A stretch of 64,000 bases of DNA from Escherichia phage ECO111 5-P. Location: the sequence record OR844765. One strand, 5' to 3'. A program made the position numbers and the translations under genes. Positions 21,256 to 21,435 of the stretch are shown one piece after another. Within the stretch, counting starts at the first letter, position 1, and every line of letters begins with the position of its first letter. The notes under the pieces were generated by a model. That model was not told the origin of the DNA and did no database searches. It worked only from the letters and a program-made list of their open reading frames with translations.

Positions 21256-21435
21256 ATGGCAAAACAAGCTAAAGCAAAGAAAGCAGTTGAAAAGAAAGTT
21301 GATGGTACCTCTAAACGCGCTGGATACAAGCGTGGGTCGAACTCTCGTATTAATCAAACAGTTGAGAAGATCATGCGCAGAGCACGTGCAGTTCTTCGAG
21401 ATGATGCTTCTCGTTTTGGAAAGGTTGTTGCATAA
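21256..21435 (+). CDS. small basic protein (59 aa; below ORF-track cutoff)
   Basis: ATG 21256 to TAA 21433-21435; Lys/Arg-rich MAKQAKAKKAVEKKVDGTSKRAGYKRGSNSR...; followed by strong hairpin terminator. Confidence 0.5.
   Translation: MAKQAKAKKAVEKKVDGTSKRAGYKRGSNSRINQTVEKIMRRARAVLRDDASRFGKVVA

Follow-up and report, generated by a model that had tools for sequence, protein, structure and literature searches.

In a 64,000-nucleotide (nt) stretch of Escherichia phage ECO111 5-P (sequence record OR844765), hereafter the window, the short open reading frame (ORF) at positions 21256-21435 of the plus strand is almost certainly the long-annotated gene 30.9 of T4-like phages, and protein-coding. It runs through 59 codons from ATG to TAA, a clean frame whose translation is exactly as quoted in a preliminary description of this DNA, and its product, gp30.9, has a calculated mass of 6.56 kDa and a pI of 11.35. 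The explanation that we favour overall, and consider reasonably probable, is that of gene 30.9 followed by a terminator/promoter cassette and encoding a polyanion-binding protein. The preliminary description had presented the ORF as unlisted, which holds for the ORF track on which it was based, but public records annotate the gene in both RB69 and T4, so the novelty that it implied did not survive.

The window sequence is that of an RB69-like Mosigvirus, a T4-type phage. RB69 and related Mosigvirus genomes share 97-98% DNA identity with the 30.9 region, and the RB69 counterpart of the ORF, RB69p220 (NP_861910, 'gp30.9 conserved hypothetical protein'), is identical in amino-acid sequence and has rIII and 30.8 as its neighbours, with cd, 31.1 and 31 lying upstream. 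The T4 orthologue, T4p212 (NP_049823; UniProt P17310), has 58 residues, of which about 90-95% are identical to those of the window protein; in T4 and RB69 the gene occupies the same slot between rIII and 30.8, with the same terminator arrangement, and shows no substantive difference from that of the window. Residues 1-57 match PHROG 1427 ('function unknown') with an E-value of 2.4e-31. The annotation of gene 30.9 dates back to the genome papers of T4 and RB69; its family has no Pfam entry, whereas rIII, 30.8 and 30.7 each have one, and no functional study of gp30.9 was found in the literature searched.

The historic name of P17310, 'uncharacterized 11.1 kDa protein in Gp30-rIII intergenic region', corresponds to an old 97-residue form of the T4 protein, an in-frame upstream extension that is closed in the window by a stop 5 codons upstream of the ATG. 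We rejected this extension, the in-frame length of which varies from 1 to 49 codons across relatives, as well as a peptide encoded in the 30.9 leader, the frame of which is disrupted by 1-nt indels between T4 and the window. We also observed that mislabels are spreading in public records (for example OR352946, OL964745, MN850579 and UniProt P17310). One is '1,4-alpha-glucan (glycogen) branching enzyme, GH-13-type', an artefact of RAST, and the other is 'putative 11.1 kDa protein', which stems from the non-conserved 97-residue, upstream-start version of T4.

The features of the locus, all on the plus strand, are as follows.

19057..19086, plus strand: T4-type early promoter GTTTAC-18-TATGAT upstream of cd (pattern scans).
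20619..20626, plus strand: late-promoter motif TATAAATA, immediately behind the stop codon of gene 31, with 117 nt to rIII (exact motif match).
21140..21255, plus strand: conserved proximal leader of 30.9 (conservation more widespread than anywhere else in the rIII-30.9 spacer).
21243..21247, plus strand: Shine-Dalgarno-like AAGAG, 8 nt before the ATG (direct reading; the MAK/MSK start is conserved).
21256..21435, plus strand: coding sequence of gene 30.9, 59 codons and TAA (ORF call; gp30.9 annotation in RB69 and T4; PHROG 1427; conserved frame).
21310..21348, plus strand: core motif S-K-R-A-G-Y-K-R-x-S-N-x-R, codons 19-31 (73-sequence alignment; synonymous codon variation).
21355..21417, plus strand: single predicted amphipathic alpha-helix, codons 34-54 (AlphaFold2; hydrophobic moment).
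21440..21472, plus strand: intrinsic terminator with stem AGGGAGAC/GUCUCCCU and UUCG loop, then UUUGUGCGUUU (folding, conservation and covariation).
21495..21523, plus strand: T4-type early promoter GTTTAC-N17-TACTAT for gene 30.8 (pattern scans; aligns with the twin cassette at gene 32).

The significance of 30.9 rests on its conservation and not on the length of its ORF, which is unremarkable, with 47 ORFs of at least 30 codons overlapping one 4-kb stretch of this AT-rich DNA. By tblastn the protein is matched in 1006 phage records, which cover many enterobacterial T4-like genera, and the gene order 31-rIII-30.9-30.8 is kept in eight Tevenvirinae genera, represented by RB69, T4 and members of Jiaodavirus, Mosugukvirus, Dhakavirus, Gelderlandvirus, Karamvirus and Moonvirus, as well as in an uncultured T4-like contig (L012). 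Two other phages, PspYZU05 of Pseudomonas and a T4-like phage of Aeromonas, have 30.9 right after a gene-31-type gene, and no rIII or 30.8 could be recognised there. Of the IMG/VR loci, 38 allowed the core motif to be located, and every one of them has an intact frame opening with MAK or MSK. Stops and frameshifts, which the preliminary description had named as grounds for refutation, were encountered in no relative examined. Pairwise ratios of nonsynonymous to synonymous substitution (dN/dS) range from 0.13 to 0.45, a signature of purifying selection, with the replacements falling mostly in the N-terminal tail. Between the window phage and T4, residues 17-56 are 97.5% identical, compared with only 40% identity for the neighbouring 30.8 product.

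These data also bear on the possibility that the frame is a chance, non-functional one, and that what is conserved is really an RNA, or else a gene read in a different frame or from the opposite strand. ORFs of this length are common in the window, and the +2 and -1 frames are open there too. In addition, the synonymous divergence of 30.9 from T4 (pS 0.25 over 21256-21435) is below that of its neighbours (0.46 for rIII, 20743-20991, and 0.71 for 30.8, 21565-21936), leaving room for some constraint at the nucleotide level, and codons such as GCT22, TAC24 and AAC29 do not vary across 30 distinct sequences, which hints at codon bias or an RNA-level constraint added to selection on the protein. 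Against this, the 30.9 frame is the only one that is open in all 34 distinct coding sequences compared (the +2 frame is open in 7 of them and the -1 frame in 17), and on this basis a conserved gene in another frame or strand was rejected. Amino acids are moreover held fixed across synonymous changes: the invariant Ser19 is encoded by AGT, TCA, TCC or TCT, and thus by both serine codon families, the invariant Arg21, Arg26 and Arg31 by CGN variants, and Gly23 and Ala43 by three codons each. The family, finally, comprises 155 protein clusters. Judged from the sequences, a chance frame is effectively refuted, and we give it hardly any weight.

Regarding composition, the Lys/Arg richness pointed out in the preliminary description is borne out, since gp30.9 has 10 Lys and 8 Arg against 5 Asp/Glu, a net charge of +13 with 30.5% basic residues, and is the most basic of the 149 Met-initiated ORFs of at least 50 codons in the window (mean 12.1%, standard deviation 4.4%). 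Family members are mostly of 53-68 residues, a few reaching about 90, and share an architecture to which the window ORF conforms: a MAK/MSK start, a variable Lys/Ala/Val-rich tail, the core R-x-G-Y-K-R-x-[ST]-N-x-R and then an amphipathic, Arg-faced helix. Across 73 sequences M1, R21, Y24, K25, R26 and R31 are invariant, and A2, K3, G23, N29 and R44 nearly so. The AlphaFold2 model built from this alignment has a mean predicted local distance difference test (pLDDT) score of 72.2 (66.8 with 20 sequences), with a helix predicted at residues 34-54 and coil elsewhere; residues 1-33 are non-regular (pLDDT 56-63), and the highest confidence is reached at residues 31-50 (pLDDT 86-92). The hydrophobic moment of residues 30-54 is 0.59, compared with 0.26 +/- 0.13 for shuffled sequences.

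No known family was recognised in this protein. There was no Pfam match above the E = 0.1 cut-off, no relevant NCBIfam match and no match in PADLOC. A search of PDB sequences with the family profile gave nothing below E = 0.1, its best match being a 25-residue helical stretch of SlmA (E = 0.12) that we treated as chance, and a Foldseek search of the PDB with the AlphaFold2 model, which is of low confidence and non-globular, gave 0 matches. Domains or folds of the HU/IHF, H-NS or similar type were not matched in Pfam, NCBIfam, the PDB or with Foldseek on this low-confidence model. Profile comparison with hhalign returned probabilities of 0.6% for E. coli bL27, 0.1% for E. coli bS21 and 0.6% for lambda N. 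No relative came to light when the species-representative genomes of GTDB (185,579, bacterial and archaeal) were scanned twice, nor in a tblastn search of PLSDB plasmids. Given the lack of both a family or profile match and a cellular relative, gp30.9 is homologous neither to histone-like nor to ribosomal proteins; the preliminary description had suggested a nucleic-acid-binding protein, perhaps histone-like or ribosome-associated. A hidden Markov model (HMM) search of 1.84 billion representative proteins yielded 19 matches at E <= 0.001, all but one of 20-97 residues, the remaining one being a repetitive protein of 617 residues that looks spurious. The 155 clusters mentioned above came from a second profile search; those listed are of 53-130 residues and contain no Pfam domains, with the exception of P0035, a 92-residue fragment with a PF00122 match.

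In general type, gp30.9 resembles the arginine-rich motif (ARM) peptides exemplified by lambda N, which are likewise small, basic, predicted to be disordered and early-expressed, with an Arg-rich helical segment. The likeness is one of general type only, as no homology to the lambda N ARM is detectable and no boxB-like target is known here, nut-like sites not having been searched for. Small basic ribosomal proteins, including phage-encoded bS21, are comparable in size, charge and non-globular prediction, but there is no sequence or profile similarity to them, and the gp30.9 family was not found in the cellular genomes.

Homologues do extend beyond the T4-like phages. In Salmonella phage 7-11, a member of the Grimontviridae with a genome of 90 kb, gp134 is a homologue of gp30.9, and the annotation of that phage already notes its similarity to gp30.9 of Aeromonas phage 25. 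The gene lies among early genes that include an Srd-like sigma-70 decoy, with a tRNA-Cys gene just downstream. Upstream of it we observed an unannotated gap of 700 nt with RNA-like features at about 2000-2400 of our locus L054 (NC_015938, about 82170-82570, minus strand). The gap gives a match to the permuted transfer-messenger RNA (tmRNA) model RF04321 that scores 29.6 bits (E = 8.5e-4), below the gathering score of 47, and includes a tag-like frame, GCA AAU GAU AAU GCG UUC CGA GUA GCA GCU UAA, that would read ANDNAFRVAA*. It also holds two tRNA-like 3' ends, GGTTCGAATCC...CCCACC and GGTTCGACTCCTGATGCCCGCTCCA, which are not called by ARAGORN. The region upstream of gp134 has no significant nucleotide similarity to the T4-type leaders.

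Among uncultured contigs, one homologue adjoins DNA ligase and RlaP. A further set of low-GC Logan contigs (L059-L064) carries genes of the gp30.9 family, for example MAKNK...STSKRAGYKRK.N.RVDVL.AQLQRIARKAL, next to cellular-looking neighbours (HMG-CoA reductase, UbiA, a PEP-utilising enzyme, ferritin, PagP, NADAR and Ham1) and with few PHROG matches; their source may be a jumbo phage, an unrepresented bacterium or a mobile element.

Downstream of the gene, the TAA is followed by 5 nt (TTTTA) and then by GGGAGACTTCGGTCTCCCTTTTG at 21441-21463, so the distance of 6 nt given in the preliminary description was correct to within one base. The sequence forms a hairpin, GGGAGAC-UUCG-GUCUCCC, with an 8-bp stem (21440-21459) and UUUUG behind it, and has a predicted folding energy of -19.2 kcal/mol (z = -4.2 relative to dinucleotide shuffles, in a 51-nt context). 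The terminator had been called strong, which is apt for the stem, while its U tract is only moderate: the tail after the stem, UUUUGUGCGUUU, has the interrupted tract UUUU-G-UGCGUUU, compared with 5-8 T in the orthologues. The site is absent from a generic terminator scan, probably because the T-run rule is no longer satisfied once the flanking A-U pair joins the stem. Pseudomonas phage PspYZU05 apart, nearly all homologues have a G+C-rich hairpin behind them, capped by a tetraloop or pentaloop and followed by a T-run; the stems differ between lineages (GGGAGAC, GGGACTCC, GGGAACC, GGGGCTCC), with compensatory double changes across genera in 5 of 9 stem pairs (RNAalifold, 17 sequences). Sequence and predicted fold taken together make it very probable that this hairpin is a real intrinsic terminator, which one Mosigvirus record, MK373778, already annotates. 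The conserved frame, the purifying selection and the compensatory stem changes thus uphold the earlier view of a real gene with a real terminator, and the preliminary interpretation as a whole is partly supported.

The 23-nt terminator sequence occurs four times in the window, at 6183-6205 (plus strand), 21441 (plus strand), 44141-44163 (minus strand) and 63493-63515 (minus strand), where 0 copies are expected by chance; relative to the copy at 21441, the other three have 0, 2 and 1 mismatches, respectively. The copy at 6183 lies directly after gene 32, encoding the single-stranded-DNA-binding protein (5274-6176), and is followed by an early promoter, GTTTAC-N17-TATTAT (TTTACT-N16-TATTAT from 6233). 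This arrangement is that of the promoter-early stem-loop (PeSL) cassettes described in T4-like phages (Arbiol et al. 2010, PMC2839356), with the promoter consensus TTTACW-N17-TAYWAT (Comeau et al. 2014, PMC4122927). As in those cassettes, the stem-loop terminator of 30.9 precedes an early promoter of consensus type and its hairpin is reused in the genome, but of the four copies of the hairpin in the window, just two have an early promoter after them on the same strand. In nearly all relatives the cassette lies between 30.9 and 30.8; PG7 has an extra ORF between these two genes. By sequence, then, the 30.9 terminator and the 30.8 early promoter form one of the repeated PeSL-type terminator/early-promoter cassettes of the genome.

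As for the expression of 30.9, it is reportedly the subject, with that of rIII, of a study by Driukas and Nivinskas in 2003 (cited in PMC9409239). The T4 30.9 mRNA belongs to the early class (PMC9697503 Table S2). A pattern scan of T4 found no canonical early promoter between cd and 30.9, and the early promoter at 19057 is our candidate for the start of an early unit cd-31.1-31-rIII-30.9. No convincing late promoter or MotA box was seen by eye directly upstream of 30.9. The gene would be the last cistron on transcripts from both the early promoter at 19057 and the late-promoter motif at 20619, reading through to the terminator. The late motif TATAAATA occurs 18 times in the window, compared with 7.6 occurrences expected, mostly on the minus strand and in the 30-52 kb part. 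Separately, a candidate T4-type early promoter, GTGTAC-N17-TACTAT, was noticed at 21070-21098 (plus strand), within the 3' arm of a hairpin that follows rIII; RB69-type phages and IME08 share this candidate, but it is deleted in T4.

The proximal leader of 30.9 contains a small hairpin, CCCC-UUGA-GGG, followed by CUUGCG, and a second hairpin, GCAGG-CAAUGCCAAUAAGU-CCUGC, just 5' of the Shine-Dalgarno sequence. The position of the latter is fixed across the loci compared (window 21140-21255; L008, L012, L019-L053) and its stems are lineage-specific (GCAGG/CCUGC, GAACUGG/CCAGUUC, GGGAGC/GCUCCC, GGGAAC/GUUCCC, GGUGGAG/CUCCAC and GGCGA/UCGCC), with Proteus phages retaining the loop CAAUGYCAAUAAGA. 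This hairpin may be a translational operator or a stabiliser. A translational switch that occludes the Shine-Dalgarno sequence is not claimed, as the recurring pairings UCUCC/GGAAGA, CCUC/GAGG and AUUUUC/GAGAAU are no better than those of shuffled sequences. Rfam scans of the window region and of eight orthologous loci turned up nothing above threshold, the weaker matches being driven by the terminator hairpin, and ARAGORN called no tRNA or tmRNA in the window or the T4-like loci.

Two further elements were noted in the rIII-30.9 spacer. Directly after the rIII stop, positions 20996-21082 (plus strand) form an 87-nt nested hairpin, GAGG.AGCCGU.CGAACUGUC...AAUGAUU-UGCG-AAUCAUU...GACAGUUUUACGG...CCUC (-26.5 kcal/mol, z = -3.8), which has no Rfam match and is near base-for-base identical in T4, RB69-type phages and IME08, the flanking genes of which differ synonymously; it could be a 3' stabiliser of rIII or a processing site. 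In Jiaodavirus, Karamvirus, Moonvirus and other phages, it is replaced or joined by another conserved element of about 140 nt, GGCAAGUGCAUGCUACCCCGAGGCGAUGGCCAAUCGGGAGUACGCCUCAAGGCC...CUAACGGUGUGCAACAGAUAAGAG, found at about 515-650 of L005 (Klebsiella phage LilPanda), in L009, L010 and L012, and in several IMG/VR loci. This element has pseudoknot-like interleaved complementarity (CCCGA/UCGGG and GAGGCG/CGCCUC) and no Rfam match at E <= 1. Dhakavirus leaders combine pieces of it differently, indicating that the spacer is modular.

Turning to function, the charge of gp30.9 and its predicted disorder fit polyanion binding. Our tentative proposal for the mechanism, drawn from sequence and models, is that this 6.6-kDa polycation without a globular fold would act stoichiometrically, early in infection, by folding onto a polyanionic partner, most plausibly RNA (an mRNA leader, a tRNA-like RNA or the ribosome) and less likely DNA. 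Contacts to the nucleic acid would be made by the basic motif and its Tyr; the helix, which bears a hydrophobic stripe as well as an Arg face, would serve for dimerisation or docking. RNA is favoured for two reasons, both of which we regard as weak, namely the conserved modular leader upstream of the gene with its hairpin of fixed position, and the location of the phage 7-11 homologue among tRNA-like and tmRNA-like sequences. Several observations weigh against this proposal. No homology to any nucleic-acid-binding family was detected in Pfam, NCBIfam, the PDB or with hhalign; the assignment of disorder rests on AlphaFold2 models with a mean pLDDT of 67-72; and the phage 7-11 link consists of a single lineage and a sub-threshold Rfam match. 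The stability of the window leader is not above that of shuffled sequences, and the hairpins that would occlude the Shine-Dalgarno sequence are weak (-2 to -6 kcal/mol, z about 0 relative to shuffles). In T4, gp30.9 was not detected by mass spectrometry in the time-resolved proteome (PMC9697503 Table S2), which is unsurprising, in our view, for a K/R-rich 58-mer after trypsin. Lastly, a polycationic helix could equally well bind an acidic protein surface or a membrane.

The main rival explanation is that gp30.9 is a host-takeover or anti-defence inhibitor, in which the invariant linear motif and the amphipathic helix would bind a specific host protein and not nucleic acid. The gene is a small early one within a block of non-essential-looking early genes, the hydrophobic stripe of the helix suggests a protein interface, and the extreme conservation of residues 17-56 relative to 30.8 is as expected for a conserved host target. 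Together with the spread to the unrelated phage 7-11, among early genes that include its Srd-like sigma-70 decoy, this conservation is accounted for as well by an inhibitor as by the explanation we favour. However, no known inhibitor family was matched in Pfam or NCBIfam, and a net charge of +13 with a Lys/Ala tail is more typical of nucleic-acid binders; the absence of a PADLOC match says little, as that library models defence-system proteins and not phage inhibitors. We consider an inhibitor of this kind rather unlikely. A ribosome-associated factor, either ribosomal-protein-like or a translation modulator with its basic segment inserted in rRNA, appears improbable to us. The protein does recall small ribosomal proteins in its size and pI, in starting with MAK and in being predicted to be extended and non-globular, and the phage 7-11 homologue has tRNA and tmRNA-like genes as neighbours, but the profile probabilities for bL27 and bS21 are negligible, there is no ribosomal Pfam or NCBIfam match and the GTDB species genomes contain no cellular homologue.

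As a discovery, the feature is of small value, since the annotations of T4 and RB69 already contain the gene along with its neighbours and terminator, and it is hence known. Its residual value is that of a well-defined, uncharacterised gene in the best-studied of phages. With about 97% identity over 40 residues between T4 and RB69-type phages, gp30.9 is among the most conserved small early proteins, and it is at the same time the most basic product of the window, without a Pfam family or a detected cellular homologue, and with a homologue in an unrelated phage family. This profile makes it a cheap and sensible experimental target. A more specific idea, which we regard as a long shot, is that the gp30.9 family is a phage-specific disordered RNA-binding factor acting on structured RNA, be it the ribosome, RNAs of the tRNA/tmRNA type or its own leader, by autoregulation. 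Early factors of T4 that alter translation or termination after infection have long been reported, with no gene assigned to them; if the idea were true, gp30.9 could be one of these factors.

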